DNA of 32,000 nt from Candidatus Saccharimonadota bacterium (GTDB taxonomy: Bacteria; Pseudomonadota; Alphaproteobacteria; CAJXXZ01; 1604HC), in the NCBI RefSeq assembly GCF_008189405.1, contig NZ_CP043316.1:390001-422000 (forward strand), written 5' to 3'. Under the pieces are notes generated by a model. That model ran no database searches. It was given only the letters and a program-made list of their open reading frames with translations, and was not told where the DNA came from. Below, piece after piece: positions 1,491 through 32,000 of this stretch. Every line of letters begins with the position of its first letter. Within the stretch, counting starts at the first letter, position 1. A program made the translations under genes and the position numbers.

Positions 1491-2696
1491 TTAATTTTCA
1501 GATTTTTCAGCTTCTTTTGCTAATTTCTCTTTCCTTGCTTCTTCTTTTATTGCTGCTCTTTCTAATGCTTTTCTTTCAAGAACTGCTTTTTTACGCTCTT
1601 GCTTCTCAATTTCTGCTTTTTCTAACTTTTCTTTTTCGATTCTATTTTGCTCAATCAACTCTTTTTCCAAAGCTTCTTGATCAATTAATTCTTTTTTCCG
1701 TAATTCAATCAAATAATCATGTACGAAATCCAACATATCGTTAATTCCAAGCTTATCCCAACTTGCAAGGCAAAATACATTCTTATATTTCTGTTTTACC
1801 TTTGCTTTTGCTTCTTCAATTTCTTCTTCGTCAACTAAATCACATTTAGTCAGACAAATACAACTTACTTTTTCTGAAAGCTTAGGATCATACTCATGTA
1901 TTTCAGTCATAATGCATTCAATATCTTGCTCAAAATCTGGACTACTTATATCTGCTAAATGTAATAAAACTTTACATCTTTCAATATGTTGTAAAAATTG
2001 GTGACCAAGGCCCTTCCCTTTATGTGCTCCTTCAATCAAACCAGGAATATCTATAAATGTAATATCTTTATTATGGTGCTTTACATGTGCAAGCTTGGGC
2101 TTAATTGTACTAAAAGGATAATCAGCAATAACAACTGGGGCATTTGAAATAACATGAACAAGTGTGGATTTACCAGCATTTGGCTTTCCAACCACTCCAA
2201 CATCTGCAATCTTTTTCAAAATTAATTTTAATTCTTTCTCTTCACCTTTATCTCCATCAGTTGCAATTCGTGGAGTTTGAAAATTTGGTTTTGCAAATCT
2301 CTTATTACCTAATCCACGCTTTCCACCACGAGCAATCAGAATCTTTTTGTCATTTAAAATTTCACCTAATAAATCTCCACTTTCATCGCCCAAATATATT
2401 TGAGTACCAAATGGAACTTCAATAATTAAATCTTCTCCTGATCTTCCTGTACATAAACAACTAGATCCATCACGACCGTTTTCAGCTTTCCATACTTTTC
2501 TATATCGAAAATCTACTAAAGTACTAAGATTATGGTTTCCTTTGATGTAAATGCTTCCACCACGTCCACCATCACCACCATCAGGACCACCCTGAGGTTC
2601 TCTACTCTCACACCTAAAACTTATACATCCGTTTCCACCATTTCCAGCTTTAACAATAATTCCAATTCTATCTATGTACTGACTCATTAGAATCAT
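1491..2696 (-). CDS. obg: GTPase Obg/CgtA with Lys/Glu-rich C-terminal extension
   Basis: Obg-fold glycine-rich N-domain (IVKAGNGGNGCISFR, GGPDGGDGGRGGSIY). GTPase motifs G1 GKPNAGKST, G3 DIPGLIEGA, G4 TKCD. The true start may be the second Met at 2687 (MSQYIDR...). Confidence 0.93.
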   Translation of the reverse strand: MILMSQYIDRIGIIVKAGNGGNGCISFRCESREPQGGPDGGDGGRGGSIYIKGNHNLSTLVDFRYRKVWKAENGRDGSSCLCTGRSGEDLIIEVPFGTQIYLGDESGDLLGEILNDKKILIARGGKRGLGNKRFAKPNFQTPRIATDGDKGEEKELKLILKKIADVGVVGKPNAGKSTLVHVISNAPVVIADYPFSTIKPKLAHVKHHNKDITFIDIPGLIEGAHKGKGLGHQFLQHIERCKVLLHLADISSPDFEQDIECIMTEIHEYDPKLSEKVSCICLTKCDLVDEEEIEEAKAKVKQKYKNVFCLASWDKLGINDMLDFVHDYLIELRKKELIDQEALEKELIEQNRIEKEKLEKAEIEKQERKKAVLERKALERAAIKEEARKEKLAKEAEKSEN

Positions 2697-2822
2697 TATA
2701 TATTACGATCGATAAATATTATATATGCAATATTATTAATCTCAATGCATCATTTACGTATTAATTAGATACTCATTATATTTATTCTTAAGTTACTTGA
2801 CTTTCCAATATATATAATATAT

Positions 2823-4331: not shown

Positions 4332-4427
4332 TAATATATTCTCTTAATTCACCGCTATAGTTTCATATATAGTCGGTATATACATGCCAGAGATTTCCTG
4401 ATCCTCAATTTATATACACATAATTTT

Positions 4428-4457
4428 TTGCATATACTATGTGATTTAGGGTACAAT
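4428..4457 (+). promoter_or_regulatory. candidate sigma70-type promoter for comEC-hinT
   Basis: TTGCAT (4428-4433), 18-nt spacer, TACAAT (4452-4457), 15 nt upstream of ATG 4473. Such matches are frequent by chance in AT-rich DNA. Confidence 0.3.
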
Positions 4458-4472
4458 CAGTAAGAGAAAGCT

Positions 4473-6449
4473 ATGTGGATTTTGAAAAATATTGTTACAC
4501 CTAAAATTCCAATTCATCATTATCCGCTTTTTTGGCTGTTAATAGGTAAAATTATTGGAATAGGAACATATCTAATATGCCCTACCCCAACATTACTATT
4601 CCTTATAATTCCCATAGGATTACTATATTTTGTAAGAAAAAACATTACCATATTTCTTATGTTTGGACTGATTTTAGGGTTTGCACGAATTAGTCATAAA
4701 ATATATTCATTAAAGTATGACAAACCAACCTTTACGTATTTTGATGGCATAATCCATAAAATATACCGTAATAATGACAGATGTAGTGTATTAGTAAAGC
4801 TGAATGATTCTAAAAATTTCATAAGGATTAAATTAGATAATGATCAGGACTTACATCAAAATAATAATGATTTATATCAAGCTGGAATTATTAATGAGCA
4901 AACTAGCAATCCTAATTCATATCAAAATTTAAATTCATATAAAACGAGCAAGCAGCATGATAAGCATAATTATCATAGTAATTGCATAAATCAATCCCAT
5001 AGCGTCTACAGTTCTACAAATAATAATGAAGATTATAATAGAAGTTTGAAACATCATGAAACTTACAATGAAAATTTACAAATTAATAATTATATTTCTG
5101 GGCATGTACAATTATATGGAATCCCTGAACCATGTTTGCCAGAAGCAAAAGATATTCGATATAAAGAATATTTTTCCAGAGTGATATCTTACGGCAATAC
5201 AAAATCATATAAAATCATATCATCTAAGAGCTACCTTTTCTCTGAGAAAATAAGCAAATACATAAAAGCAAATTTCAAACCAATTGAAGCATCATTATTT
5301 AAATCATTATTATTAGGGCAAAGCAATGAAGTGCCTTATAAAACCAAACAGGCATTTCAAAATGCCAGTATTTCACATTTATTAGCAATTTCTGGGCTGC
5401 ATATTGGATTGATTGCATTGTTTTGCTATGCATTATGTAGGTGGGGAATATACTTTTTTATCTTTAAGCACTATAAAATTCCTATCATATATATCAGCCA
5501 ATTATTTTCTGTTATAGGAATAATATCTTATTTATTTTTAATTGAAACATCAATATCTGCAATCAGAGCAATTATAATGTTTTTATTCCCAATTATGTCA
5601 TATTTTTCTTTCCGCAAAACATTACCATCTCATGGGCTTATGTCAGCAATCTTCATACTGCTCATGATTTGGCCTGAATCATTGCTATACCCTAGTTTTC
5701 AATTTTCATGTTTAGCAGTATTTGGATTAATTTCATTTAAATCTACATATAAAAATTATTTTATAAAAATACTATCAAGCACATTAATATGTTTTTTAAT
5801 CACAGCTCCATTCACAATATATTGGTTCAATCAAATACCAATTCAACCATTTCTATCAAATTTAATATGTATTCCTCTAATGTTTATTATTATGTCCTTA
5901 ATTACTTTCTGGGTATTTTTATTCAAATTAAATATTTCATTCATCTTTCTAAACAAAATAATTGCATTACTCCTATATTGGTTAAATAATTTAGCAATAA
6001 TATTTTCTGATTTTTTAAACCATACTATATTGTTTCACCAAATACATTATTCTGCTTTAATTTTCTGGGTAATCAGCTTAATAATCATAGCAAATTATAA
6101 AAATTATGCACAAAAAATTGGATTGGTATTCTTATTGCCATTCTTATTTAATATATATAACAAGCCAAAAAATATGTTTGTGATTTCAAAAAATGGAGAA
6201 GTAGCACTACTACAAAATAGTATTTTATATGCTAAAAATGACAATTTCACCACAAATTGTTGGGCAAAAACATTAGGAGCTAAGCTTTTAGTAGGCACTG
6301 AAATAGATAATCACGTACAAATTAACAAAATAAATGGGAGAGTGAATACAATAAAATTAAGAAATAGGATGTTTTTATCTAGACAAAGTTTCAAGAATTG
6401 CCCTTGTAAGATTATAAATAATAAACCTAATATTAATTATTGGAGTTAA
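4473..6449 (+). CDS. comEC: ComEC/Rec2 DNA-uptake channel protein lacking the C-terminal MBL domain
   Basis: Competence-domain signature FQNASISHLLAISGLHIGL followed by many hydrophobic helices. N-terminal TM helices plus an OB-like segment interrupted by an Asn-rich insert. The last ~100 aa contain no DVGQG, HxHxDH, TGD or HHGS motif. Confidence 0.85.
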   Translation: MWILKNIVTPKIPIHHYPLFWLLIGKIIGIGTYLICPTPTLLFLIIPIGLLYFVRKNITIFLMFGLILGFARISHKIYSLKYDKPTFTYFDGIIHKIYRNNDRCSVLVKLNDSKNFIRIKLDNDQDLHQNNNDLYQAGIINEQTSNPNSYQNLNSYKTSKQHDKHNYHSNCINQSHSVYSSTNNNEDYNRSLKHHETYNENLQINNYISGHVQLYGIPEPCLPEAKDIRYKEYFSRVISYGNTKSYKIISSKSYLFSEKISKYIKANFKPIEASLFKSLLLGQSNEVPYKTKQAFQNASISHLLAISGLHIGLIALFCYALCRWGIYFFIFKHYKIPIIYISQLFSVIGIISYLFLIETSISAIRAIIMFLFPIMSYFSFRKTLPSHGLMSAIFILLMIWPESLLYPSFQFSCLAVFGLISFKSTYKNYFIKILSSTLICFLITAPFTIYWFNQIPIQPFLSNLICIPLMFIIMSLITFWVFLFKLNISFIFLNKIIALLLYWLNNLAIIFSDFLNHTILFHQIHYSALIFWVISLIIIANYKNYAQKIGLVFLLPFLFNIYNKPKNMFVISKNGEVALLQNSILYAKNDNFTTNCWAKTLGAKLLVGTEIDNHVQINKINGRVNTIKLRNRMFLSRQSFKNCPCKIINNKPNINYWS

Positions 6450-6450
6450 T

Positions 6451-6897
6451 ATGAATGAAAAAGATAAAATAAACTCAATATCATATGATGCACATGATAT
6501 ACGTAATAAGCATAATACAAGTAATATATACAGTAATACAAATAATGTGCACAGCAAAAGTATAGACAATACATATAATACAAACAATTTATTTGCAAAA
6601 ATCATTAGAAAGGAAATTCCATCTGAAGTGGTTTATGAAGATGAACATACTTTATCTTTCAAAGATATTAACCCACAAGCTAAAATTCATATTCTTATTA
6701 TACCAAAACAAAGATATTGCAATGTAAGCGATTTGCTTAATGGTAATAAAGAATTTTTAGGAAACTTTATGCTAGGAGTAAGCAAAACAATTCAGAAAGC
6801 AAATCCAGAAAATAAAGATTTTAAGTTATTAACAAATAATGGTACTAATGCTGGCCAAGAAATATTTCATATGCATTTCCATTTACTCATTAATTAA
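6451..6897 (+). CDS. HIT-family (HinT-like) nucleotide hydrolase with Asn-rich N-terminal extension
   Basis: Histidine triad HMHFHLL at the C-terminus and LFAKIIRKEIPSEVVYED at the HIT N-motif. The start is 1 nt after the comEC stop, with GGAG at 6441-6444. Confidence 0.88.
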   Translation: MNEKDKINSISYDAHDIRNKHNTSNIYSNTNNVHSKSIDNTYNTNNLFAKIIRKEIPSEVVYEDEHTLSFKDINPQAKIHILIIPKQRYCNVSDLLNGNKEFLGNFMLGVSKTIQKANPENKDFKLLTNNGTNAGQEIFHMHFHLLIN

Positions 6898-7125
6898 GCT
6901 ATTTCATTAATATTCTAATTAAAAACAAATAAATCATTAATTAGATTTGCCATTGATATATTAATTAATTTTGATTATCTAATGCTAATCTTTATGTTTT
7001 ACAACCCTCATACGCCTTTTATTATATTGCATTGATAATTTTTATATTTTCATGTTTTATCATACATATTACTTACTAAATACATTGATTATTATTAGAT
7101 TGATTGTTATAAATTATTAGGTTTA

Positions 7126-8133
7126 TTATTTGAATTTAATGTGGTCTATTTTATAGTTTGCAATCGCACTTTCATTATATTGTGAAACTATTCCTTTTTT
7201 GTAATATAAGTATCCTGTATATGCAATCATTAGACCATTATCTCTACATAATTTTGGCTCTGGTATGAAAATATTTTTACCATTCTGCTCACATAAATTT
7301 GTAATTTTCTCTCTAATATACAAATTAGAAGCAACTCCACCTGCAAATACCCATGACTTTATATTGTAAGATTTCCATACATTTTCCAGCCTGCTCTCAA
7401 GAGATTTTGCTACTGTTTTTTGCAAACCCATACATATATCACTTTTTGTTTGTTCAGATTTATCACTTTGGTCCCAAAACCTTATTGCTGCTGTTTTCAA
7501 TCCAGAAAAAGAAAAATTCATAGAATCATCATTCTTTAGTGGAATAGTGAATTCTATAGCACTCTTTGATTTTTTTGCATACTCTTCCATATAAGGACCA
7601 GCTGGATTAGGAAAACCCATACACCTCCCTACTTTATCAAACATTTCACCAACAGCATCATCCATAGATGAACCCAAAATTTCGTATTTACTTAATTCAT
7701 TTGCTAGAATTATACATGTGTGCCCTCCAGAAACTAATAATATTCCAAACGGAAATTCTAAGCTGCTATTCCATTTCGCAATTATCGCATGACCTTCTAA
7801 ATGGTGAATACCAATCCATGGAATATTCAAGCTCCATGCTAAACTTTTAGCATATTGCACTCCAACCATAACACTACCTAACAATCCAGGCCCTTGTGTA
7901 GCAGCTATAAAACTCAAATCGTGCAAAGTAACATTATTACGTATGAGAATACTATCAATCAATTTAGGCAAAACATCCATATGCTCTCTTGAAGCATATT
8001 CTGGGACTACCCCACCAAACATTGAGGAATCCTGTGTAATTATCTCATTTGCTAAACATTTCTCATTTTCCATCAGCGCAACAGCAGTATCATCACAGCT
8101 TGTTTCTATTCCCAAGTATAAAACCACGAACAA
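7126..8133 (-). CDS. tsaD: tRNA N6-adenosine threonylcarbamoyltransferase TsaD (Gcp/Kae1 family)
   Basis: GIETSCDDTAVAL N-motif, HHLEGH metal-binding motif, GGVASN near the C-terminus. The start is ambiguous: TTG 8133 or GTG 8127. Confidence 0.92.
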   Translation of the reverse strand: MFVVLYLGIETSCDDTAVALMENEKCLANEIITQDSSMFGGVVPEYASREHMDVLPKLIDSILIRNNVTLHDLSFIAATQGPGLLGSVMVGVQYAKSLAWSLNIPWIGIHHLEGHAIIAKWNSSLEFPFGILLVSGGHTCIILANELSKYEILGSSMDDAVGEMFDKVGRCMGFPNPAGPYMEEYAKKSKSAIEFTIPLKNDDSMNFSFSGLKTAAIRFWDQSDKSEQTKSDICMGLQKTVAKSLESRLENVWKSYNIKSWVFAGGVASNLYIREKITNLCEQNGKNIFIPEPKLCRDNGLMIAYTGYLYYKKGIVSQYNESAIANYKIDHIKFK

Positions 8134-8413
8134 TTATAGTGAAAATTAACAAATTCTTAAAGTAAATATACCAAAATAAAATAGCTAGCTGATAATTAAT
8201 TCGAATTAGAATTAAAATAATAAATATAATAATTAAATAAATATAAGCTTCTTAGCTAATACAAATTAAATAGAATCATTCAATAAATAATATACATAAA
8301 ATAACTAATCAATATTAGTGAAAATTAAAAATATTATGAAATTAAAATTTAATTTTCCAAACTAACCTAATAGCCAAATTAAGATATTATGAAATTGAGA
8401 TTGAAATTAAAAA

Positions 8414-8485
8414 AGCGAGCGAAGGGATTCGAACCCTCGACCCCAACCATGGCAAGGTTATGCTCTACCACTGAGCTACGCCCGC
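8414..8485 (-). tRNA. tRNA-Gly (anticodon GCC)
   Basis: Reverse complement GCGGGCGTAGCTCAGTGGTAGAGCATAACCTTGCCATGGTTGGGGTCGAGGGTTCGAATCCCTTCGCTCGCT folds as a 72-nt cloverleaf. It has a 7-bp acceptor stem, D-arm GCTC/GAGC, anticodon loop TTGCCAT and T-loop TTCGAAT. CCA is not encoded. Confidence 0.93.
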
Positions 8486-8724
8486 TTGTGAATTGATTAT
8501 ACATGACAAAAAAGCTAAAAGTCAAATTCCAACAAACTATTATTTCTAATTTTCAAACCAGTTACTGTTCAACCTTCCCCAAACCTTATTTTACAATCAA
8601 AACAAATGATAAATTGAACATATATATAGATCAGTAAAAACACATAGGTTTAAAAATATGTTTTGTTTATATTAACACCGCATGGAAATGCTTAACAAAT
8701 GCCTAAAAACCACATAAAAAACAC

Positions 8725-8753
8725 TTGCATTCAATTAAGTAAATATGTATAGT
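8725..8753 (+). promoter_or_regulatory. candidate sigma70-type promoter for the 8771 gene
   Basis: TTGCAT (8725-8730), 17-nt spacer, TATAGT (8748-8753). AAGGA lies 7 nt before ATG 8771. Confidence 0.4.
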
Positions 8754-8770
8754 CCAACAAAAGGATTTTT

Positions 8771-9355
8771 ATGTTAAAAAAATTTATAATAATGCTACTT
8801 ATAACAAGTGAATCATACGCTATGGAAAACGAAGAGATGGATATGATGGATGAAATGCCTTATTCTGAGCTTGATAAGTATAGTGAGCATACCGTAAATG
8901 AGGGCTCTGAACATTTAAATGTGTCAAAATCACCTCAGTTAGATTCTCAAATAACAGTGAAGATATTAGATAACGATCAAATATATTATCGTAGTCAAAT
9001 AAAAGAAGATAGAGCTGATGATTTTGCTCATATTACTTATATGCAAAGATCAGAGCTGGCATTGTTACGCAAAATGGAAAATAGCAAATTAAAATTACAA
9101 TTACATGATGAAGATAAGATTAACGAATTACAAAATGAGGTTGCAAATTTAAAGGAAGATAGAGGTAATGATCGAGAAAGTATTAAATCATTATTGTCAA
9201 AGTTGCAAAACAAAGAAGAAAAATCAGAGCAACTAAAACTTGAATTGCAGAACAGGCAAAATGAATTTAATTATCAGATTACAAAATTACAAAATGAAGC
9301 TGCTATTTTACAAAATAGCAAAAATGATGGTCAGAAAAATATCGATAAATTATAA
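8771..9355 (+). CDS. signal-peptide + coiled-coil protein (possible N-terminal fragment of the downstream repeat protein)
   Basis: MLKKFIIMLLITSESYA has a Sec-type n/h/c layout with an SYA cleavage-like site. The C-terminal half is heptad-like (LQNEVANLKEDRGN...KLQNEAAILQN). It ends at a single TAA 9353-9355, after which the same frame stays open. Confidence 0.65.
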   Translation: MLKKFIIMLLITSESYAMENEEMDMMDEMPYSELDKYSEHTVNEGSEHLNVSKSPQLDSQITVKILDNDQIYYRSQIKEDRADDFAHITYMQRSELALLRKMENSKLKLQLHDEDKINELQNEVANLKEDRGNDRESIKSLLSKLQNKEEKSEQLKLELQNRQNEFNYQITKLQNEAAILQNSKNDGQKNIDKL

Positions 9356-9634
9356 TCTGAATTAAATCAAAAGAACCAAAATGCTGCTGCAATCAGGCTT
9401 GCAGAACAAAATAAAATAAATTTAGAAAAGAATCCAAATACAACTGAAGGTGAAAAGGTTGCAGAAAAGTATGAAAAATCAGGACAATATGAAAAAGCTG
9501 CACAATTATATAAAGAAGCTGCAGAGCAATATGTTAGTAATGCAGAAGAAGATCAAGATGAAAAGCAAGCAGAAATAGCTGCAGAATTATATAAAAAAGC
9601 AGCACAATTATATGCAAAAACAGATAAGAATGAA

Positions 9635-11593
9635 TTGTCTGGAGAGCTATATACTATAGCTGCCAAGCAATATTTTAGTGCAAATAAAAATAAAAATGCT
9701 GCAGAATCGCATGAAAAGGCTGCATTCATGTATGAAGCATGCAAGTCTAAATATAAATCCACACGAGATAAGTATATTGAAAACGCTATTGAGCAATATA
9801 TAGAATCTGCAAAACTTTATGAACAACTCAAACAGTATGAAAAATCTGCACAGCAATACATCAAAATAAATCAACATAGCAAAGCTGCAGAGCAATATGA
9901 AGAAGCAGAAAATTATGATAATGCTGCAACCAATTACATTAAAGCGGAACAATATGTTAAAGCGGCTCAATGCTATTCACGCGATGCTGCAAAACATGAA
10001 GATGTTGCAACTCAGCATGAAAATCAAGGAAATAAGCATAAACAAAATAATCAATATAAAAGTTCTGCTGAACAATATAGCAATGCATCTAGACAATCTT
10101 CTGAAGCTGCTAAACAATATATAAAATCTGGACAACAGTATGAGAAAGCACAACAATACGAAGATGCTATAGAACAGTATAAAAGTGCTGCTGAACAGCA
10201 CATAAAATCCTCAAGTCAATATATAAAACTCCATGAACAAATGGAATTAGAATATGAACGCCAAAAACAGTGTGGCACTTTTAAACCTGATCATATAGTA
10301 AATCTTCAACGAAAGGGTCTTAATAGCACAATAGAAAAGCATTACGACCAATCTTCTACACAATATGCAGCTGCAGCAAAAATTCATGAAGAATCAAAAC
10401 AATTTGACAGGTCTGCATTAATATACATTGTTATTGCACAACAATACGAAAAAGCAAGCTTTCACCTCAAATCAGCACAACAATATGCAAAAGCTGCCGA
10501 ACAATATGAGAAAGATGGAACGCAATATACTCAATATGGCGAACAAAAAAAGCAGCAGTATATAAAAGCTGCTGAACAATATATAAAATCTGGACAACAA
10601 TATAGAGAGTGCCATAAAAAAAACGAAGCTGCTGAACAATACGAAAAATCTGCACAATCATATGAGAAAGCAAATAAATCTATAGATGCATCAAATTTAT
10701 ATGAAGTAGCAGCAAAACGATATTCTGAAGCATTGCGCGATACAAAATCTGCTGAGCTTTATGAAAAACTCACACAATATGAAAATGCTGCCGCCTCATA
10801 TATAGAATATGCTAACCGTTTTGCGAATAATTGGCACTCAAAAACACGAGCAGATAACCCACTTATATATATAAAAGCAGCAAATCTATATGAACGAATC
10901 AATCAATATGAAAACGCTGCTAAAGCATACGATAGCGCTGGTGCAGGATATACAAAAGAAAAAATGCATAAAGAAGCTGCTGAACAATATATGATGTCTG
11001 CGCAAAATTATGTTATTAGACCATGTAATGAATATGAAAAGGCCGCTGAGCAATATGTAAAGGCTGCTGAGCAATACGTAAAAGCAAATCAATCTGAAAA
11101 GGCCGTAAAATTGTATATAAATGCTGCACAAAATTATGTCATGGGATCATGCAGTGAGCACGTGAAATCAGCTGAACAATATATAAAAGCTGCAGAGCAA
11201 TATAAACAAATAGAGCAATATGAAAATGCTGCTGTGCACTATAATAATGCTGCACAAAAATATATAACTGCAAAAATAGATGATAAGGCAGCTCATCAAT
11301 ATTTGTGTTCAGCTGTGCAATACAAAAATGCAGGCAAATCTTTAGATTCAATAAATCAATATACAAAAGCAGCAAATACTTATGAAAAATTAGCACAAAA
11401 GTGTTCATCAGACACACCAAAAAAGCAACTATATTCCCAAGCTGCTGAGCAATATAAAAATGCAAATAAACATACAAAAGCAGATGAAATGCATAATGAA
11501 GCTAATAAAATTATAATCCCACGACATGCCCTATCTCACCGCAGAGTGCATAAATCAACAAGGGTAAGAAGATCTACCCCTACACAAAATTGA
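9635..11593 (+). CDS. AAEQY/YEKAA helical-repeat protein (paralog 2); coordinates from first canonical start (TTG), coding signature extends upstream to 9356
   Basis: 652-codon ORF of the same repeat type as 2..1198. The in-frame repeat sequence EKYEKSGQYEKAAQLYKEAAEQY starts near 9464 with no ATG/GTG/TTG between 9356 and 9634. Stop is TGA 11591-11593, immediately followed by TAA. Confidence 0.7.
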   Translation: MSGELYTIAAKQYFSANKNKNAAESHEKAAFMYEACKSKYKSTRDKYIENAIEQYIESAKLYEQLKQYEKSAQQYIKINQHSKAAEQYEEAENYDNAATNYIKAEQYVKAAQCYSRDAAKHEDVATQHENQGNKHKQNNQYKSSAEQYSNASRQSSEAAKQYIKSGQQYEKAQQYEDAIEQYKSAAEQHIKSSSQYIKLHEQMELEYERQKQCGTFKPDHIVNLQRKGLNSTIEKHYDQSSTQYAAAAKIHEESKQFDRSALIYIVIAQQYEKASFHLKSAQQYAKAAEQYEKDGTQYTQYGEQKKQQYIKAAEQYIKSGQQYRECHKKNEAAEQYEKSAQSYEKANKSIDASNLYEVAAKRYSEALRDTKSAELYEKLTQYENAAASYIEYANRFANNWHSKTRADNPLIYIKAANLYERINQYENAAKAYDSAGAGYTKEKMHKEAAEQYMMSAQNYVIRPCNEYEKAAEQYVKAAEQYVKANQSEKAVKLYINAAQNYVMGSCSEHVKSAEQYIKAAEQYKQIEQYENAAVHYNNAAQKYITAKIDDKAAHQYLCSAVQYKNAGKSLDSINQYTKAANTYEKLAQKCSSDTPKKQLYSQAAEQYKNANKHTKADEMHNEANKIIIPRHALSHRRVHKSTRVRRSTPTQN

Positions 11594-11851
11594 TAAATAT
11601 CTAACAAAAGAATTAGCATTAAATATTCGCTCATTGAGCAATTCAATGAAATGGAGAAAGTGGGTCAACACTGTAGGGCTCAAAATATGCTTGATAGAGC
11701 AAATAAAATAAAATAATCTTTCATATATAAAAAGCAGCTCTATTGAAAATCACTTTAGCTATTTCCCTCCCCCAGTATAATCACCTCAAAAATTCATCAT
11801 TTTAATGAAAATTTAAATTTTAGTTGATTGTTATCTTAAGTGTAATATAAT

Positions 11852-11857
11852 AGGAGG
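11852..11857 (+). promoter_or_regulatory. Shine-Dalgarno AGGAGG for atpH
   Basis: AGGAGG lies 3 nt before ATG 11861. TTGATT (11824-11829), a 16-nt spacer and TATAAT (11846-11851) sit directly upstream, but that would leave almost no leader. Confidence 0.5.
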
Positions 11858-11860
11858 GTT

Positions 11861-12358
11861 ATGAGCTTACAGCATTCAGTTTGGAGTAATGTGCCTGTAG
11901 ATCGCATTAGTGATTTGACAGCAGATATTCTGAAAATATACATTTTTAGGAAAAAGGAAAATGATACCTGGAATTCGATTCCAATACTTAATCTAGACCT
12001 TGAAAACACTCTAAATCTATCAAAAATATCAAATGATATAATATCTTATGTATACAATTCATGTACTTGGTCAGACTTCAATCAATTTATTTCTATGATG
12101 TATAGGCAATGCTCAATATGCAAAAGCAATATAAATAATGTTCAAGTTATTTTATCTAAGCCTGATGAAGAATTAGAGCAAATCGTAAGAAAATTCATTG
12201 TGGATCAGTTTGAAAATGATGTAAATATAATATTTAAATACAAAATATCCATCTTAGGCGGTGTTATGATTGACATTGGATCTATCAGAATTGATGCTTC
12301 TTATGGTAATATGTTGAATAAGTTTATTGGAGAATTGCATGAATCGTTTAAAGCTTGA
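11861..12358 (+). CDS. atpH: F0F1 ATP synthase subunit delta (OSCP), short and divergent
   Basis: Position as the first gene of the atpHAGDC order. The C-terminal ILGGVMIDIGSIRIDASYGNMLNKF resembles the conserved delta C-terminus (GG..v..G...iD.S....L). Confidence 0.7.
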   Translation: MSLQHSVWSNVPVDRISDLTADILKIYIFRKKENDTWNSIPILNLDLENTLNLSKISNDIISYVYNSCTWSDFNQFISMMYRQCSICKSNINNVQVILSKPDEELEQIVRKFIVDQFENDVNIIFKYKISILGGVMIDIGSIRIDASYGNMLNKFIGELHESFKA

Positions 12359-13858
12359 GGATATTATAAATGGAATTAAAGCTAAAATAGATACCTTAGA
12401 TACAAATATAGATATTTACGAAACTGGGAAGGTAGAAACTGTTGCTGATGGAATTTGCAATGTTTTGGGATTATCTGACGCTATATATGGAGAGGTTATC
12501 GTTTTTGAAAACAAACAAAGAGGGTTAATCGTAGAGTTATTGGAAGATAATGTAAAAGTAGCCATTCTAAATTCTGATCCAAAAATAATATCTGGAATGA
12601 TTGCATACAGAACAAAGCAAATACTTAAAGTTAAAGTAGGACCAGCAATGCTAGGTAGAGTTGTAAATGCATTTGGTGATCCAATTGATGGAAAAGGTGA
12701 TATTAATACTGATTTAGAGCAAGTTGTAATGGCAGAATCTCCACAAATCATAGACCGAAAAAAAGTTAGCGAACCTCTCTATACTGGTGTTAAAATGATT
12801 GATGCATTGATTCCTATAGGATATGGGCAAAGAGAGTTGATTCTGGGAGATAGAAGAACTGGAAAAACCACAATAGCAATTGGCACAATCTTAAATCAAA
12901 AAGAAAATTACCAAAAAGGGAAACCAGTCTATTGTGTTTACGTGTTTATAGGTAAAAAAGCCTCTGATGCAGCAAAATTAGCGAAATATCTTGAAGAACA
13001 AGATGCAATGAAATATACAACTTTTGTAATTGCTTCAGCAGACGATCCAGCTGTGTTTCAGTATTTAGCTCCATATGTTGGAACAGCAATTGCAGAATAT
13101 TACAGAGATAATGGAGAGCATGCATTAATTATTTATGATGATTTATCTAAACATGCTATAGCATATAGGGAAATTTCACTATTGTTGAAACGTTTTCCTG
13201 GAAGAGAAGCATATCCTGGAGATATTTTCTTCCTACACTCTAGCTTGTTAGAAAGATCAGCTTGTATGAGCGATGAAAAAGGTGGTGGATCGTTAACAGC
13301 TTTGCCAATCATTGAAACATTAGAAGGAGATATTTCTTCATATATTTCTACAAATGTGATTTCAATTACTGATGGTCAGATTTTCATGGATAAGAACCTA
13401 TTTTTATACGGGCAACGACCTGCAATCAACACAAATATATCTGTAAGTAGAGTTGGTGGATCAGCACAAACACAGGCTATGAGAAAAGTATCTGGAATGC
13501 TTAAGTTGGAATTAGCACAATATGCTGAATTAAAAGAATTTTCTAGATTCTTAACAGATATTGATGAAACTACTGAAAAAGCTTTAAGAAGAGGTGAAGC
13601 AGTAACAAGAATATTGAGGCAAGGTGCTAACCAGCTGTACTCATTTGAAGATGAAATACTTGTGATTTTTGGATGCAACTTAGGATGCTTTGATAATTAT
13701 CCAATAGATAAATTACAAGAAGCTGAAAAACAATTCTTATCTCAATTTAGAAAAGAAAACTTTAGCATATTAGATAAATTAATTAAAACAAAAGTGATTG
13801 ACGAAGAAATAGATTCCACTGTGAAGAAGTTTGTAAAGAAATTCAAGGAACAGTCTAT

Positions 13859-13862
<4 letters not shown>
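12339..13862 (+). CDS. atpA: F0F1 ATP synthase subunit alpha
   Basis: Walker A GDRRTGKTT. Conserved stretches include YDDLSKHAIAYREISLLLKRFPGREAYPGDIFFLHSSLLER and ITDGQIF. ATG 12339 is preferred over the listed TTG 12327 and overlaps the atpH stop. Confidence 0.95.
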
Positions 13863-16067
<2,205 letters not shown>

Positions 16068-19873: not shown

Positions 19874-21562
19874 TTATTCTGATATTATAGATGATATCTT
19901 TTCTAATTTCTTTCGCAATTCTTCAATTTCTTTCCGCTGTTCATCAATTGTTTTATCCTTATCTACCATTGCTTTTTCAACAATTCTTAACATCTCTTTA
20001 TTATTTAGCACATAATTTGGATCACTATCAAACATAATTGTCCCAGAATAATAAGGTGATGCAACATAGGGCATATAAATCGGCTTACTAGAGTTACTAC
20101 TGGAAATAACATAATTTTTACCCTTAATGTATTGTTTAAATTCATCTATGTTTTCAGAAGGTTTATAGTATAAAAGCTTCTCATTTAGTTCACTACTTAA
20201 CTTATTAAATAATATTAAACTACTATAACAAGGTAGACACGGATATGTTAATAATTTTGTCATTTTATTTTTTAGTTTATATTGATCTCCATCATTACAA
20301 TAAGTTAAGCATATTTTAGAATGAATGCTGTAAGCCATCGCAACATATCTAGGCATAATATCTTCAAACACCTTACTATCTACATATGCAAATTTTTCCA
20401 TCCATCTTGTATATGGAAAAGAATCAAAATCAGCTGGAATAATAATTGCACTTACTTTAAAATAATTATTTAACTGTATCATGGCATCTACACTTGCAGT
20501 ACTTCCTGATCCATGATGTGGCGCCATACAAATAATACTATGCTGTGGTTGAGCTTGATGTGCTGGATTTTCTTGTACAGAGTCATATAACGCGTATAAT
20601 GCCTTATTTTCATTATCTATTCTTTTTCCCGTGGCCTGCATCAACGCACTAAGCCATGGATATTTCTGTAATCTTATTTTATGTCTCAGCACACCTCCAT
20701 CTGCTTCTTGATCATTTATCTTTTCTTTTAAATATGCAGGTAAATTGTCTTTCAATGTGTTCAATGTGCTATTTTCAGCATCTCCAGTACATAAAAGTGA
20801 CATAGTATCCTTATCACCATATTTATGTGCAAATGAAATAATCGGACTGGCTGCATTGTGATTTGCATTAGTATTCATAGACCATATGTATACATAATTT
20901 TGCAATTCAGAAATTATATTATCAAATCCACTTAAATATCTTCTATATCTCTCCGCTTTTTCACTAATTTCTGATTTTTCTATTTTTTCATTGATACTTC
21001 TATTTTCATTGATACTTATATATTGATTTTCAAGTTGTGCTTGAGCCTTATCCCATAATTCTTTAATATCCCCATTAAAAAAAGCAGGATTAGAATGTTC
21101 TTCATTCTTTTTATTTCTCCAATAATATGGTTCGATTGATCTATCTTTATACTGCAAACGTACTTCTTTCGCAATTTTTGTATCTTTTGTATTCCAATCA
21201 CCACATAGAAATGCAACTAGATTAAACTGCTTTAAATAACTAAAATAACCCCTCATTTCACTTATATGATCTTGTTCAGGATGAGATAATATAACTATCA
21301 ATAAATTCAAACCTTTTAGTGCTTTTAAAGCAGCATCTTTATCTATACCGTAAGTAGTAGTAGTTCCAAAATCATACATTATGCCTACTCTTTGGGGCAC
21401 TAGAGTACTATTATCCTCTTTCACCCAATATTTATTTAATTGACAATTCCCTTTACCAAAATTGAATATATAAAACTCACTTTTTTCCACCACCGAGTCG
21501 ATTTGCAGCATGCATATCATTAAGCATGTACGCTGCAAATAATTTACGAATATTTTCAACAT
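19874..21562 (-). CDS. ComEC-type MBL-fold family protein, paralog A (562 aa), possibly decaying
   Basis: Aligns with 26462..29509 across the N-terminal module: IFNFGKGNCQLN, ILSHPEQDHI (21266-21283), FLCGDWN, YVYIWSMNT, LLCTGDAENS, ICMAPHHGS. C-terminal coiled coil. No SD upstream, and the putative signal peptide is interrupted by Q/R. Confidence 0.75.
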   Translation of the reverse strand: MLKIFVNYLQRTCLMICMLQIDSVVEKSEFYIFNFGKGNCQLNKYWVKEDNSTLVPQRVGIMYDFGTTTTYGIDKDAALKALKGLNLLIVILSHPEQDHISEMRGYFSYLKQFNLVAFLCGDWNTKDTKIAKEVRLQYKDRSIEPYYWRNKKNEEHSNPAFFNGDIKELWDKAQAQLENQYISINENRSINEKIEKSEISEKAERYRRYLSGFDNIISELQNYVYIWSMNTNANHNAASPIISFAHKYGDKDTMSLLCTGDAENSTLNTLKDNLPAYLKEKINDQEADGGVLRHKIRLQKYPWLSALMQATGKRIDNENKALYALYDSVQENPAHQAQPQHSIICMAPHHGSGSTASVDAMIQLNNYFKVSAIIIPADFDSFPYTRWMEKFAYVDSKVFEDIMPRYVAMAYSIHSKICLTYCNDGDQYKLKNKMTKLLTYPCLPCYSSLILFNKLSSELNEKLLYYKPSENIDEFKQYIKGKNYVISSSNSSKPIYMPYVASPYYSGTIMFDSDPNYVLNNKEMLRIVEKAMVDKDKTIDEQRKEIEELRKKLEKISSIISE

Positions 21563-26290: not shown

Positions 26291-26461
26291 TATAATGCAT
26301 ATTAATTGAAAATATTATAATATCTGCTAAATCAATATTAACAAAAAAACTTTACAATATATTCATTAATCTTGACTAAAAAAAATTTGATTAAAACATA
26401 ATATAAATCCATTATTGTGAATTAAGCTGTTGCCAGTTCTTTTGAATCTGATTATTGTTGA

Positions 26462-29400
26462 TCATCTTTTTTCAGCTTGTGCTTTAAGCTTGTTCAATTC
26501 ATCTATAGTGAAAGTTAAATTTGCATATTTACCTAAATCCCTAAGTGCATCATCTACACACGCTCCGTCTAAGTATTCTATTGCAGTATCAATTTCACCT
26601 TTTAACTTTTTTACTTCTTCTATAGTAAGTTCAGTAACTTCAGCAATTTCATTTATACTCACCGTATTCTTTATTAACATACTTTTCGCAATATTAATAC
26701 GCGTTTGATTTGTTCTTTCCTTTTCTGCCTTATCCATAGAAATACCATAGTTATATTTAATTATACTATCATTCATAAACTCCAGTATGCTACCCTTGAT
26801 TCTCACTCCGCTATTATGTCCAGCATATTCCTTATATTCAAACTCTTTAATATATTTCCAAGATTCAAGATATTTAGTATATTCAGTAGATTCAACAGAT
26901 TCAACAGATTCAACAGATTCAACAGATTTAGGCACACTGTTTGTATGGACACCTATTACAACATTACCATTTAAAATAATTGGACTTCCACTATTTCCTT
27001 GCAAAGTATCTACTGTATGTAAAATCATTTCATTATCATTATTTCTGAGTCTAGCTTTTTTAGCATTTCCAGATGATTTACACAGTTTGCTATTAGTACT
27101 TGTATTGCAAGCTCCTGGATATCCAATGATTGTTACATCTTTTTTATCAGCAAATTCTACTACTTTAAGTTTAAATACACCTTCTTCATTATCAGTAATA
27201 TTATAATCAAAAAATAGTAATGCAATATCATACTCAAGCGCACGCTCTTCTTTTCCTTTATAATTGTCATGAACATAATAATGTTTACAATGATGTTTAG
27301 TATTATGCCCCTCTTTTGCAAGTGCAAAATATACTTCATAAGCTCCTTTAAATTCAAAATCATATACATTATGCGCAGCAGTCATTACTATATTTTTACC
27401 AATTAAAAATCCACTTCCAAATACTGGCTTATCAATACCATCAAATTTCATGGTTATTTTTCCACAAGCAGAGTATGGAAGTGATTCCAATTCTTCCGAT
27501 TTTGTAATTTGTTCAAATGCCTCATCTTCTGATTTTGCACTCATTATAGATTCAGGCTCTCCATACCTACCTTCATTATATTTTTTCATTGCTTCCATTC
27601 TTCTATCATTTTCACTTTCATTTAACTCAGCAAGAATTGGACCGCCATAGCCTTCTATACTTTTAATATTTTTTTCATCTTTTTCATCTTGATCTGGTTT
27701 ATCAAATTTAGGCATTATAATTTTAACAATACCATCTGGACCTACGTTTACATATTGACTTGTAAATATATTCTTATCATCTTTACTTACAGGCACTGTA
27801 TTATTTACTGCTACAATAGAATATGCTGCTGCAAGTGCAATGATAGGATAAGGCTCAATACAATCATCAAATCCATTCCAATCACTTATAGTAACACACA
27901 AACTTCCATGATCATTCGTTGAATATAGCCAATTTGGACACCTTAACTTATCTGAATCTTTATATGGCCTAATAGGTGCATCTTTTCCGCTTGATGCTCC
28001 TATATATGTAGCTATTTGAGACAAATCTGTTTTTAGCCCTGCAACCACACCATTAATGTTTTTTAATATTATACAATAACTATCACCAATGCTTTTTGAT
28101 AATTTCCCATATCTCCCTCCTATATCATCATTCAAAATTCCAACACTCATCATCCTATACCAGTGTTGATGTATATGTGGATACATTGTTCCATGCCCAT
28201 TAGATACATAAACCATGCTCATCTTCATTAAATCATTTAATAAAATCATAGTACTTGCTTGATCTGCAGATCCATGATGTGGTGCAATACAAATAATATC
28301 ATGATCACTAGTATCACTTGTTACAGAATCATATAATGCATATAATCCAACTTTATGGCTATCTGTCGCCTGCATCAATGCATTTACATATGAGTATTTT
28401 TGTAATTTCATATTCCTACGCACAATATCTTTTCTATCTTTTAAGTATAGCCGCAACCTTTCTTCTAATGATTTATTATCATTACCTGATATTGTACTAT
28501 CCTCAGCATCTCCTGTACAAATCATAGATAAATATTTTGTATCTCTTGAGACAGTTTGATATTGGTGTGTGAATGAGATAATTGGACTAACTGCATTCTG
28601 ATCCTTTTCTGCACTATTACATGGTGTATTCATAGACCATATATATATATAATCTCTTAACTGAGCAATTGCATTATCAAATTGATTTAAATAACCTAAT
28701 AATGATGCTTGAGCATTTGCTTGAATTAGCTGGTTTTGAGCTAAATCAAACTGTTGATTTGTATGATCCCATTGGCATATATAATCTATATAATTGATTT
28801 TGTTTTTGGCATGAGAGTCAGTCAGAGATTTTAATTGATGAGTTAAATTTTTAACATTTGCTTCTGCAGCTGTCTTATTTGCTACTTTTCGTGCTTGAAT
28901 AAGATTCAATTCACCCTTCGCTATAGCAAATAATTCTTCAATATTTCCATAGAAGAAATTATTGCCCATTCTATCCTTACTCCAAGAATATGGCTCTATT
29001 AGTTTATTTATAAAAGCATCTTTTGCTTTTTTCATTTCACCTTTGTCATTCCAAACCCCACATAGAAATGAAATAACTTTTAATGTCCCATCAATCATTT
29101 TGTCTTTTAATGACTGGCTTTCTTTATCAACTTTATATTCAAGAACTCCTTCAACCTTATTTATATGATCTCTATCTGGATGTGATAGGATTACTATAAG
29201 TAAATGTAAGTCTGTAAGTTTTGAGCTAATTTCACCACATAAAGTTGCAGACCTAACATTATCAGCATATACATTAAATCTCAATGGAAATGGATGGCTC
29301 CCACAATCATACAGGAATCCAATTCGTTCTCTTTTTTTCACTTGCATTCCATCTTCATCCCTTTTATCATACTCAACAAAATACGTATTCAACTGGCAGT

Positions 29401-29509
29401 TACCTTGGCCGACATCAAATACATGCATCTCACTGCTCAGTACTCCAGCGTCAATCGATATACCAACAACCAGTATCAGGCTGCGTAATAGCATCATATT
29501 ATTCTTCAT
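26462..29509 (-). CDS. 1015-aa multidomain protein: signal peptide + ComEC-type MBL module + S1 trypsin-fold serine protease + (VES)n repeat + Rpn-like helical tail (paralog B)
   Basis: DVGQG 29402-29416, HPDRDH 29165-29182, TGD 28508-28516, HHGS 28268-28279. Protease triad: TAAHNV (His 27371-27373), EYDIALL (Asp 27227-29), GNSGSPI (Ser 26990-92). SD AGAGG lies 5 nt (GTAAA) before ATG 29509. Confidence 0.85.
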   Translation of the reverse strand: MKNNMMLLRSLILVVGISIDAGVLSSEMHVFDVGQGNCQLNTYFVEYDKRDEDGMQVKKRERIGFLYDCGSHPFPLRFNVYADNVRSATLCGEISSKLTDLHLLIVILSHPDRDHINKVEGVLEYKVDKESQSLKDKMIDGTLKVISFLCGVWNDKGEMKKAKDAFINKLIEPYSWSKDRMGNNFFYGNIEELFAIAKGELNLIQARKVANKTAAEANVKNLTHQLKSLTDSHAKNKINYIDYICQWDHTNQQFDLAQNQLIQANAQASLLGYLNQFDNAIAQLRDYIYIWSMNTPCNSAEKDQNAVSPIISFTHQYQTVSRDTKYLSMICTGDAEDSTISGNDNKSLEERLRLYLKDRKDIVRRNMKLQKYSYVNALMQATDSHKVGLYALYDSVTSDTSDHDIICIAPHHGSADQASTMILLNDLMKMSMVYVSNGHGTMYPHIHQHWYRMMSVGILNDDIGGRYGKLSKSIGDSYCIILKNINGVVAGLKTDLSQIATYIGASSGKDAPIRPYKDSDKLRCPNWLYSTNDHGSLCVTISDWNGFDDCIEPYPIIALAAAYSIVAVNNTVPVSKDDKNIFTSQYVNVGPDGIVKIIMPKFDKPDQDEKDEKNIKSIEGYGGPILAELNESENDRRMEAMKKYNEGRYGEPESIMSAKSEDEAFEQITKSEELESLPYSACGKITMKFDGIDKPVFGSGFLIGKNIVMTAAHNVYDFEFKGAYEVYFALAKEGHNTKHHCKHYYVHDNYKGKEERALEYDIALLFFDYNITDNEEGVFKLKVVEFADKKDVTIIGYPGACNTSTNSKLCKSSGNAKKARLRNNDNEMILHTVDTLQGNSGSPIILNGNVVIGVHTNSVPKSVESVESVESVESTEYTKYLESWKYIKEFEYKEYAGHNSGVRIKGSILEFMNDSIIKYNYGISMDKAEKERTNQTRINIAKSMLIKNTVSINEIAEVTELTIEEVKKLKGEIDTAIEYLDGACVDDALRDLGKYANLTFTIDELNKLKAQAEKR
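26889..26928 (-). repeat. perfect 9-bp tandem repeat (GATTCAACA x4 plus a partial copy) encoding (VES)n
   Basis: Unit copies at 26889-26897, 26898-26906, 26907-26915 and 26916-26924, then GATT. Translated on the minus strand as SVESVESVESVES, between the protease domain and the tail. Confidence 0.9.
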
Positions 29510-29836
29510 TTTACCTCTATCCTCATAATGCCAAGGTTTTTACAATGAATTGCACCTGAAACTTTATAATTGTTCAGACTATAACCTATTTTCCCGGCAA
29601 TTTGAAGGGTATCCTCATGATTACCTCAATTTTCAATCAAAATCAGCAACTATGATTTCAAAAGAAAATGTAAAAAGAAAACAAACTGCAATAAGAATAT
29701 ATATAATCAACAAGATAAAGCAGTGCCAAATACTCAGTTCAACATTGCATAATATAAACTATAAATGTTTAAATCCTAAATAAACACCTAAGCCTGATCA
29801 AAACCAGATAATCAAATAAAAAAAATTACTTAATAT

Positions 29837-31363: not shown

Positions 31364-32000
31364 ATGAAAAAATCTCTAATAATACCTCTGTGTACATTAA
31401 TCACCCAGATCGAATCTGTAGTTCTAAGCAGTGAATTTCATATATTTGATGTTGGGCAAGGTAATTGCCAGTTGAGTAAATATTATGTCCAATATAATCA
31501 TAGCAATGAATATGGACAATCAGTTGAAAAAACGGAAAGAATTGGATTCCTTTATGACTGTGGAAACCATAAGCATTCACAAAAATCTGGTAGCCATAAG
31601 AGCAGATCGCAAACTTTAAGTGATGCAATCAATAAAGATATGCTAACAGATCTTGACTTGCTTGTAACAATCCTTTCATACCCAAATGTAGAAAATATAA
31701 ATAGTTTGAGTGGATTATTAGAAAATCACTATGCAGTCCAAAGCCATGATCCAAAAAAAAGAAGATCTTCTGAAAAGCCATTTGTTTCATTTCTATGTGG
31801 TGATTGGGGTCAAAGTAAAGACTCTGTTGCAAGCACAAAAAAACGTTTGGCAGATAATTCTATAGAAACATATTCATGGAAAAACAGTGATGGATCACCT
31901 GAATTTTTCTCTGATAATATTGTTGAATTGTGGTCAAAAGCAAAATCACAAACAAGTCATGCAAAACAATTGTTATTAAGTAAGTTTGATAATGCAATTG
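31364..32000 (+). CDS. ComEC-type MBL-fold family protein, paralog C, 3' end cut by window edge; metal-binding motif degenerate
   Basis: Absent from the ORF track because it runs off the window; translated by hand as MKKSLIIPLCTLITQIESVVLSSEFHIFDVGQGNCQLSKYYV...RIGFLYDCG...LLVTILSYPNVENI...SFLCGDWG...IETYSWKN...FFSDNIVELWSKAK...LSKFDNAI. GGAG lies 9 nt before ATG 31364. Collinear with paralogs A and B. Confidence 0.8.
   Translation, partial: MKKSLIIPLCTLITQIESVVLSSEFHIFDVGQGNCQLSKYYVQYNHSNEYGQSVEKTERIGFLYDCGNHKHSQKSGSHKSRSQTLSDAINKDMLTDLDLLVTILSYPNVENINSLSGLLENHYAVQSHDPKKRRSSEKPFVSFLCGDWGQSKDSVASTKKRLADNSIETYSWKNSDGSPEFFSDNIVELWSKAKSQTSHAKQLLLSKFDNAI

Follow-up and report, generated by a model that had tools for sequence, protein, structure and literature searches.

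We examined a 32,000-nucleotide window (contig NZ_CP043316.1, positions 390,001 to 422,000 of the forward strand) of the genome of Candidatus Cytomitobacter primus, a 622-kb Holosporales endosymbiont of the diplonemid Diplonema japonicum, a marine protist. The gene of interest is a single open reading frame (ORF) of 1015 codons on the minus strand, which runs from an ATG start to a stop codon at 26462-26464 and encodes, behind a predicted signal peptide, a ComEC-type metallo-beta-lactamase (MBL) module, an S1B serine protease and an RpnS-like helical tail. A preliminary description, made from the sequence alone, had called this ORF, and it is real: at the base composition of the window a stop is expected about every 13 codons, and the chance of a random open frame of this length is ~1e-36. 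The GC content of the ORF is 30%. Two C. primus database proteins, P0007 and P0004, match other ORFs of the window at 100% identity, which assigns the window to this genome. An identical 1015-amino-acid (aa) product is on record in two large contigs, one of which, OX638200.1, is an assembly from PacBio HiFi reads. The motif positions given in the preliminary description all match, namely FDVGQGN (aa 31-37), SHPDRDH (109-115), CTGDAE (331-336), APHHGS (409-414) and the catalytic residues H713, D761 and S840. Structural statements below come from AlphaFold2 (AF2) models with their predicted local distance difference test (pLDDT) scores, and the modules map to the window as follows.

26462-29509, minus strand: the whole 1015-codon ORF (identical protein in OX638200.1)
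29444-29509, minus strand: signal-peptide-like N-terminus, aa 1-22 (MKNNMMLLRSLILVVGISIDAG), the most hydrophobic window of the protein
27875-29443, minus strand: ComEC-type MBL-fold module, aa 23-545 (family profile, conservation, hhalign and literature signature)
28655-28942, minus strand: hypervariable insertion site 3, aa 190-285, a ~95-aa helical hairpin in the AF2 model
28295-28501, minus strand: hypervariable insertion site 4, aa 337-405, between motifs IV and V (low-confidence helices)
27779-27874, minus strand: fusion junction and linker, aa 546-577 (pLDDT <50)
27521-27778, minus strand: N-terminal extension of the protease family, aa 578-663 (aligns with the mature N-terminus of the standalone proteases)
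26738-27520, minus strand: S1B serine protease domain, aa 664-924 (Pfam Trypsin, 1p3c, Foldseek and invariant columns)
26819-26938, minus strand: ~40-aa insert unique to this protein, starting with (VES)4, in the loop after GVHTNS
26570-26737, minus strand: RpnS-like three-helix, helix-turn-helix (HTH)-related tail, aa 925-980 (TIGR01784, 7th0 and predicted helices)
26465-26569, minus strand: helical C-terminal extension found in this protein only, aa 981-1015 (past the end of the standalone-protease hidden Markov model, HMM)

MBL, protease and tail modules

At the level of its family profile and ligand residues, the module at aa 23-545 is a member of the ComEC-type MBLs. We set this membership through family profiles because neither the full sequence nor its N-terminal half gave a significant MBL match as a single sequence in Pfam, NCBIfam or PADLOC scans. 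A profile of 13 close homologs matches only ComEC/Rec2 structures in the whole Protein Data Bank (PDB), and a 66-member family profile gives 9ic4 (1.2e-13), 9vcb (5e-13) and 30bt (1.5e-11), with no non-ComEC MBL clade below E=0.1 in that PDB search. For metagenomic members of the family the best match is the MBL part of the NCBIfam model ComEC_Rec2 (E down to 2.6e-12), and the models Avs1a and 6A-MBL always score weaker than ComEC. An alignment of Cytomitobacter sequences only was matched by hhalign, at 98.6% probability, to a standalone protein of Niastella that is a bona fide MBL of the Pfam Lactamase_B and ComEC_Rec2 type. The AF2 model of the N-terminal part (pLDDT 61.9, predicted TM-score 0.68) has a strand order compatible with the MBL fold, and Foldseek found no significant fold match for it in the PDB. 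The ComEC-type assignment of the preliminary description is thus upheld by the family profile and by the ligand set described below, and has neither a single-sequence nor a Foldseek match behind it.

The putative metal ligands are D68, H110-x-D112-x-D114-H115, N305, D334, H411/H412 and H445. Across a family alignment of 92 members, H110, D112, D114, H115, N305 and D334 are kept in 91-92. Motifs III and IV are represented by N305 and D334 (92/92 each) and motif V by H411/H412 (89/92); H411, H412 and H445 are conserved in 86-89 members, and H315 (in SPIISFTH) varies among the members. The segments around N305, D334 and H411-H412 align with N..S, TGD and PHHGS of 9ic4 and 9vcb. ComEC C-terminal domains carry a signature of two substitutions, Asp for the second His in motif II (H-x-D-x-D-H) and Asn for His in motif III (Silale et al. 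2021; NAR 2025 gkaf932), with H598-x-D600-x-D602-H603 as motif II of 9IC4 (NAR 2025 gkaf932). Both substitutions are present here. The four signature motifs listed in the preliminary description are correctly placed and wrongly numbered: CTGDAE is motif IV, and motif III is the invariant N305, which the list did not contain. Its helical insert of ~200 aa between motifs 2 and 3 shrinks to ~95 aa (190-285), for which AF2 gives helices at aa 190-236 and 240-276, and the rest of the interval between SHPDRDH and CTGDAE holds conserved core elements (FLCGxW, IYIWSMNT, N305 and SPIISF).

Comparison with the C-terminal MBL domain of ComEC/Rec2 (PDB 9IC4, 9VCB), the best and only PDB profile match of this module, shows a common set of H-x-D-x-D-H, the motif III Asn, a bridging Asp in motif IV, PHHGS and G..Y.HP, at an identity of only ~25%. 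A hydrophobic helix directly N-terminal to the first strand is found in both, as would be an extracytoplasmic location if our protein is exported as predicted. Unlike the ComEC domain, the module is standalone, with a signal peptide and without OB fold or channel (a Pfam scan of the fusion ORF gave no match to the transmembrane Competence domain, PF03772). It also differs in its four hypervariable inserts of up to ~290 aa, in its seven paralogs and in its fusion to a protease.

The protease module is recognized directly. It scores 50.9 bits with Pfam Trypsin (cut-off 20.6; E=2.3e-13) and 47.7 bits with Trypsin_2 (cut-off 27.6), and phmmer finds the glutamyl endopeptidase 1p3c (E=9e-8). Its core is modelled at a pLDDT of ~90, and in Foldseek 1p3c (E=1.4e-12, TM-score 0.83) is followed by V8, Esp, exfoliative toxins and Spl proteases. 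The triad H713, D761 and S840 and the oxyanion-hole Gly G838 are invariant in 19/19 aligned family members, so the complete S1 triad and fold that had been claimed are borne out by profile, structure and conservation alike. T835 and H855, the equivalents of chymotrypsin positions 190 and 213, are likewise invariant in all 19. The Thr/His pocket type of V8 and exfoliative toxins favours Glu at P1, and with these two aligned residues our module may have a Glu-type S1 pocket, although two residues by themselves do not set the specificity and H855 is followed by the ~40-aa insert. This insert is absent from 18/18 family homologs and is 22% Glu; its (VES)4 (aa 863-874) is encoded by a perfect tandem repeat (9 bp x 4.6) at 26888-26928. 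The module resembles the S1B enzymes GluBI (1P3C), Staphylococcus aureus V8, S. epidermidis Esp, the exfoliative toxins and Spl in its chymotrypsin fold, His-Asp-Ser order, GNSGSP, and Thr and His at the 190 and 213 equivalents, and its standalone homologs are secreted as well. It departs from them in a family-specific N-terminal extension of ~85 aa, the unique 40-aa (VES)4 loop insert and the C-terminal RpnS-like tail, and, sitting behind the MBL module in the fusion, it lacks a signal peptide of its own.

With aa 600-1015 as the query, we retrieved “trypsin-like serine peptidases” that stand alone, both from C. primus and from other Holosporales. Each of them is built from its own signal peptide, a “DG.V.I..P.YPK” hairpin near the N-terminus, an S1 domain and the same helical tail, and the corresponding beta-hairpin of the fusion protein (YVxxxxDGxVxI..PK, in the extension at aa 578-663) is modelled at a pLDDT of ~92. 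An HMM built from the standalone proteases only aligns with aa 578-973 over positions 45-431 of its 432, so that what was fused is the whole mature protease, tail included. The alignment stops at aa 973, before the C-terminal extension at aa 981-1015.

For the tail itself, the Rpn-like character proposed in the preliminary description is supported within the family. The tail of the fusion protein matches the last ~45 positions of TIGR01784 (~229-273 of 273; E=5.6e-4), five standalone proteases match its last ~90 positions (E=1.3e-5 to 2.5e-10), and a profile of the tail family matches the RpnA small protein 7th0 (E=8.4e-4). The TIGR01784 match covers the C-terminal part only, and the N-terminal PD-(D/E)XK nuclease domain of Rpn is absent. 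RpnS is a dimerising, HTH-related three-helix domain (Zhong et al. PNAS 2023). Like RpnS (7TH0), the tail is an HTH-related three-helix unit with a long first helix (one long and two shorter helices, pLDDT ~90), and the two have the pattern IAK.(L/M)L....(S/P)...I...TGL(S/T)..E(V/I) in common. Unlike in the Rpn (YhgA-like) nucleases, it sits on a secreted protease and not on a cytoplasmic endonuclease, and the four-residue repeat variation of RpnS was not seen in the tail. At the other end of the protein, the N-terminus that had been described as Sec-like is signal-peptide-like in most of the MBL family: a signal-like segment precedes the first beta-strand in 40 of the 54 members with a short N-terminus.

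Two expanded families and the origin of the fusion

The N-terminal module has 13 homologs in Cytomitobacter and in related genomes of ~620 kb. When 1.84 billion cluster representatives were searched with a profile, 501 relatives were found at E<=1e-3, 72 of them at E<=1e-30, and the named relatives are mostly Holosporales (Cytomitobacter, a 619-kb metagenome-assembled genome (MAG) and Caedibacter). C. primus has seven MBL paralogs within ~36 kb (~293-329 kb of OX638200.1), three of them in this window. Across the family the inserts at the four sites measure 22-183, 16-253, 25-293 and 34-103 aa and often consist of coiled-coil or tandem-repeat sequence, and the C-terminal tail measures 5-376 aa. 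Among the 154 family members fetched, only the fusion protein has an S1 domain, and its C-terminal extension is the longest. Standalone S1 genes form a second cluster in C. primus, of ~7 genes (900-14300 of our locus L003, equal to OX638200.1 ~269.6-283 kb). One copy there is split into three ORFs (L003 9490-10140, 10144-10728 and 10673-10972), and a 171-aa ORF retains only the N-terminal and tail segments, a pattern that, at the sequence level, indicates birth-and-death evolution of the protease family. The seven MBL paralogs make up ~2.6% of the 622-kb genome, and the ~7 S1 proteases take several kb more.

The fusion joins these two families at aa 546-577. Similarity to the MBL paralogs ends at ~aa 545, and the alignment of the standalone-protease HMM begins at aa 578. 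A separately translated protease is not supported, since there is no ATG or Shine-Dalgarno sequence at the junction. The linker contains a hydrophobic stretch (PIIALAAAYSIVAV, aa 563-577) where the core of the captured protease's signal peptide would have been, and it could be a relic of that peptide; the stretch lies outside the HMM alignment, which starts only at aa 578, and the tail of the C. indipagum ortholog has a stretch vaguely similar to it. The C. indipagum locus is syntenic (MBL paralog, M23 peptidase, MBL paralog, ybeY, grpE, dnaK, dnaJ, MBL paralog). In C. primus the fusion ORF likewise has ybeY and the M23 peptidase as neighbours, and the C. indipagum gene at its position between these two (P0009, 755 aa) lacks the protease. 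Because of this synteny the fusion is specific to C. primus. As far as the compared sequences go, the ORF is thus a C. primus-specific gene fusion of two secreted-enzyme families, both of which are expanded in the genome.

The two families are otherwise not generally linked. In C. primus the protease cluster (~269-283 kb of OX638200.1; the MBL paralogs are at ~293-329 kb) lies 40-50 kb from the fusion gene. An S1 gene was found within 10 kb of the MBL gene in one of ~9 distinct metagenomic loci and at no C. indipagum or OZ247489 locus, and the search with aa 600-1015 detected no S1-family members from sister genomes. The one linkage found outside C. primus among the fetched loci is on a scaffold of the Caedibacter sp. 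37-49 MAG (the same scaffold as L015), where an MBL gene (L008 6493-8685, plus strand) and an S1 gene (10908-12599, minus strand) lie 2.2 kb apart. This Caedibacter island also contains insertion-sequence transposase fragments, a PIN toxin, an integrase and several signal-peptide proteins. We rejected a phage origin, as PHROGs gave only generic protease and transposase-tail matches.

Further features of the MBL family in the window are given here.

29376-29611, minus strand: cassette common to the fusion gene and the paralogs P0002 and P0003 (blastn 89.8% identity over 236 bp to the P0003 gene)
19874-21562, minus strand: MBL paralog P0007, 562 aa, without protease module (100% tblastn identity; family HMM match)
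31364-32000, plus strand: MBL paralog P0004, 671 aa, which runs off the window (100% tblastn identity; degenerate ligand motifs)

The cassette comprises ~100 bp of upstream sequence and the first ~135 coding nucleotides, signal-peptide codons included, and carries a promoter-like TTCAAA-17-TATAGT at 29606-29578 and a GAGG Shine-Dalgarno sequence. It is ~90-95% identical among the three paralogs (window 29376-29611, minus strand; L012 7900-8135 and 11275-11510). Beyond it the three genes are mosaic, with ~83% nucleotide identity in the catalytic core and unrelated inserts, which suggests gene conversion or recombination among them. P0001 (from the D. japonicum transcriptome) and P0002 (from the genome) are the same paralog and differ by 88 aa, that is, in the count of KEAAEKKTSKAIEAEKKAIREA-type repeats at insertion site 3. 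This could be real length heterogeneity or a collapse during transcript assembly; at least this one paralog is transcribed. In P0004 the ligand motifs read SYPNVEN for SHPDxDH, CAGNAE for CTGDAE and ASHRES for APHHGS, so that it is probably a catalytically dead pseudoenzyme; its tail is long, hydrophobic and transmembrane-like. The transcriptome of another diplonemid, Flectonema neradi, contains a family member (P0098/P0171) that is extended by 136 aa at its N-terminus and has no evident signal peptide; it could stem from an undescribed symbiont or a transferred gene.

No small immunity gene adjoins the fusion ORF among the window's ORFs: as the preliminary description had stated for the downstream side, the 171 bp that separate it from the convergent ybeY hold no ORF of their own, and none was found in the 327-bp upstream gap either. 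Several antisense ORFs of 89-139 aa (26430-27206, plus strand) overlap the 3' third of the gene; in one of them, on the opposite strand, the (VES)4 repeat is read as an STD repeat. These ORFs appear to arise from the AT-rich composition rather than to be genes. Elsewhere in the window, ORFs at 131-1198 and 9635-11593 (both plus strand) match a eukaryote-type SNAP (soluble NSF attachment protein)/tetratricopeptide repeat profile (E=1e-11 and 1e-22), and these may be host-mimicking effectors.

Possible functions of the fused protein

The best reading of the fusion protein, to which we give moderate confidence, is a Sec-exported effector with two hydrolase heads. It draws on the ComEC-like ligand set, the intact S1B domain, the family-wide signal peptides, the modular tails, and the relatives with OTU and ankyrin domains. 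Among the latter are three metagenomic, distant MBL relatives (P0072, P0087 and P0088) with OTU-like cysteine protease domains of the deubiquitinase type, in the arrangements signal peptide-OTU-MBL and signal peptide-MBL-OTU. A separate observation concerns the S1 family, of which one member (P0173, a 538-aa protein from a Logan contig) has ankyrin repeats, another eukaryote-directed architecture. George et al. described many secreted hypothetical proteins, the Sec pathway and a hybrid type II secretion system/type IV pilus (T2SS/T4P) in these symbionts, which depend on host nucleotides and contact, and can enter, the host mitochondrion.

In such an effector, Sec would carry the fusion protein out of the bacterial cytoplasm, with the hybrid T2SS/T4P or outer-membrane vesicles as possible onward routes. 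The MBL head would act as a Mn2+/Zn2+-dependent phosphodiesterase or DNase and the protease head as a serine endopeptidase, probably with the Glu-type pocket, against macromolecules of the host or its mitochondrion. The two modules would probably work independently of each other, perhaps once the acidic, disordered linker has been cut; the RpnS-like tail may serve as a dimerisation or HTH-type unit, and the protein as a whole would be one member of a fast-diversifying effector arsenal. The bifunctional exported effector or toxin envisaged in the preliminary description is in this sense a plausible proposal.

Several points weigh against this reading. We infer the export, activity, substrates and processing of the protein from its sequence rather than from experiment. 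A Sec signal peptide reaches the periplasm only, so delivery to the host is an assumption. The MBL module, as noted, is missed by single-sequence scans, and its substrate need not be DNA, because the closest structural relative of ComEC C-terminal domains is phosphorylcholine esterase. The 40-aa insert after H855 could impair or regulate the protease, and the OTU scores of the distant relatives are marginal (24.8-25.6 bits with a Pfam gathering threshold of 23.3).

An unlikely alternative is that the protein serves in periplasmic DNA uptake or nucleotide salvage, with the MBL acting beside an MBL-less ComEC to degrade incoming or host DNA and the protease as an accessory or passenger. The window does encode a ComEC channel of 658 aa (4473-6449, plus strand; Pfam Competence E=2.6e-39) which has no C-terminal MBL domain, the next ORF (6451-6897) being a HIT hydrolase, and most highly reduced endosymbionts lose ComEC entirely. 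For an endosymbiont with a 622-kb genome it is unusual to retain ComEC, here alongside seven detached ComEC-type MBL paralogs. Uptake or salvage would further agree with the extracytoplasmic, Mn2+-dependent endonuclease and 5' exonuclease activity of the ComEC MBL domain (Silale et al. 2021; NAR 2025 gkaf932), with the T4P/T2SS genes and nucleotide dependence of the symbionts, and with the N-terminal hydrophobic segment directly before the first strand, which is placed like the last transmembrane helix of ComEC. However, ComEC without an MBL domain is ancestral in Proteobacteria and implies no recent domain fission, for which reason we rejected, as the default view, a recent fission of the MBL from the symbiont's own ComEC. 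Seven diversifying paralogs with coiled-coil inserts and with transmembrane-like, OTU or S1 tails also fit a housekeeping nuclease poorly, and OTU modules make sense only in the eukaryotic cytosol.

The combination of modules, presented as undescribed in the preliminary description, is new as a covalent fusion, but the association of an MBL nuclease with a trypsin-like protease has been known since the anti-phage work of 2025, as separate genes. In these systems, ComEC-related MBL zymogens are activated by an adjacent trypsin-like protease that cuts two inserted loops (Tuck et al. Science 2025; bioRxiv 2025.09.03.673762; Evans et al. 2025). Trypsin-MBL modules occur in Hachiman, AVAST, Lamassu, DRT and pAgo systems and require oligomerisation of the protease, and in all of them the nuclease is encoded by a gene of its own (Tuck et al. 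Science 2025). Our protein is like them in pairing a ComEC-related MBL with a trypsin-fold protease, the MBL lying 5' of the protease, in the inserted segments of the MBL and in having an oligomerising element linked to the protease. The MBL is separately encoded in the defence modules and part of a single uninterrupted ORF here; their proteins are cytoplasmic and their protease is fused to a sensor (HamA, Avs, Lmu, RT, pAgo and others), whereas our protein has a signal peptide and no sensor; and their inhibitory loops, cut at KSS or IS(G)N, are short and conserved, in contrast to the long, hypervariable inserts found here. Pfam, NCBIfam and PADLOC scans revealed no infection-sensor domain, the RpnS-like tail being the sole extra element. 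With 6A-MBL the protein scores 13.9 bits (E=0.023; cut-off 220), the NCBIfam scan gave no match to Avs1a, and on the MBL side PADLOC returned only PDC-M05A (E=0.003). We rejected membership in these defence modules: the MBL is not a separate gene, no sensor is fused, the MBL lies outside the Avs1a/HamM/6A-MBL clade, and MBL and protease do not generally co-occur.

The same gating could nevertheless operate outside defence. The protein would then be a pro-nuclease whose S1 domain, dimerised through the RpnS-like tail, cuts the inserts that occlude the MBL, either in cis or in trans on the remaining six MBL paralogs, and thereby activates the nuclease once exported. We regard this too as unlikely. 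It has the defence precedent behind it, in which the MBL zymogen is encoded just upstream of the trypsin-like protease, two loops are cleaved and oligomerisation is needed, and it accords with the same module order, with family inserts that adjoin catalytic motifs and with an RpnS-type dimerisation tail on the protease. The S1 domain matches the protease parts of the PADLOC models RT-Protease_XI, HamA and Avs1b, but no more strongly than it matches the generic Pfam Trypsin. Likewise, ~7 MBL and ~7 protease genes lie within ~60 kb of C. primus, and the Caedibacter locus has both families 2.2 kb apart, yet the two are not generally linked (an S1 gene within 10 kb in 1 of ~9 metagenomic loci) and the sister genomes yielded no S1-family member. 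The Avs1a, 6A-MBL and PADLOC MBL models do not recognize the module, whose family scores better with ComEC. The inserts reach 293 aa, are coiled-coil or repetitive and hypervariable in length, not short conserved loops, and the protein has a signal peptide and no sensor domain. Taken one step further, the protein would be a self-activating exported nuclease directed at host DNA, with zymogen logic in one polypeptide and the other six MBL paralogs as trans-substrates of the ~7 proteases. This is a speculative extension to which we give little weight; in it, the RpnS-like tail would drive dimerisation or DNA contact, and the target might be, for example, the unusually DNA-rich diplonemid mitochondrion, yielding nucleotides that the symbiont cannot make.

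It is also rather improbable that the fusion is neutral or decaying, that is, a recombination accident in a drift-dominated genome with one or both modules non-functional or becoming a pseudogene. Birth-and-death evolution of both families, the split and decayed copies in the protease cluster, the loss of metal ligands in P0004, the uniqueness of the fusion among the 154 members fetched and the disordered linker at the junction would all fit such an accident. Against it, 1015 codons have stayed open at 30% GC (P ~1e-36), the catalytic and ligand residues of both modules are intact despite an identity of ~35-40% to the closest protease paralog, and the promoter, Shine-Dalgarno and signal-peptide cassette is retained. 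Finally, the worry that the ORF is an assembly chimera of an MBL gene and a protease gene, which the multi-copy nature of both families in this genome might raise, can be set aside as very unlikely, given the identical product on two contigs, the HiFi assembly and a unique junction sequence that offers no repeat to mis-join across, the nearest protease paralog being only ~35-40% identical.

Each kind of module was known before, as was the nuclease-protease pairing in the form of separate genes. What is new is the covalent fusion behind a predicted signal peptide, an undescribed Holosporales family of secreted ComEC-type MBLs with hypervariable inserts, and an RpnS-type tail on secreted proteases. 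Neither of the two expanded families had been described, and together they occupy a large share of a 622-kb genome, an investment that makes both of them prime effector candidates towards protist hosts and host mitochondria. The fusion is a covalent version of a pairing known in free-living bacteria as a proteolytically gated death effector in phage defence, and if its modules cooperate here, the same gating logic would have been redeployed for symbiosis. Even with independent modules, the family would present a competence-type nuclease domain as a modular secreted chassis that acquires S1, OTU and membrane-like tails.

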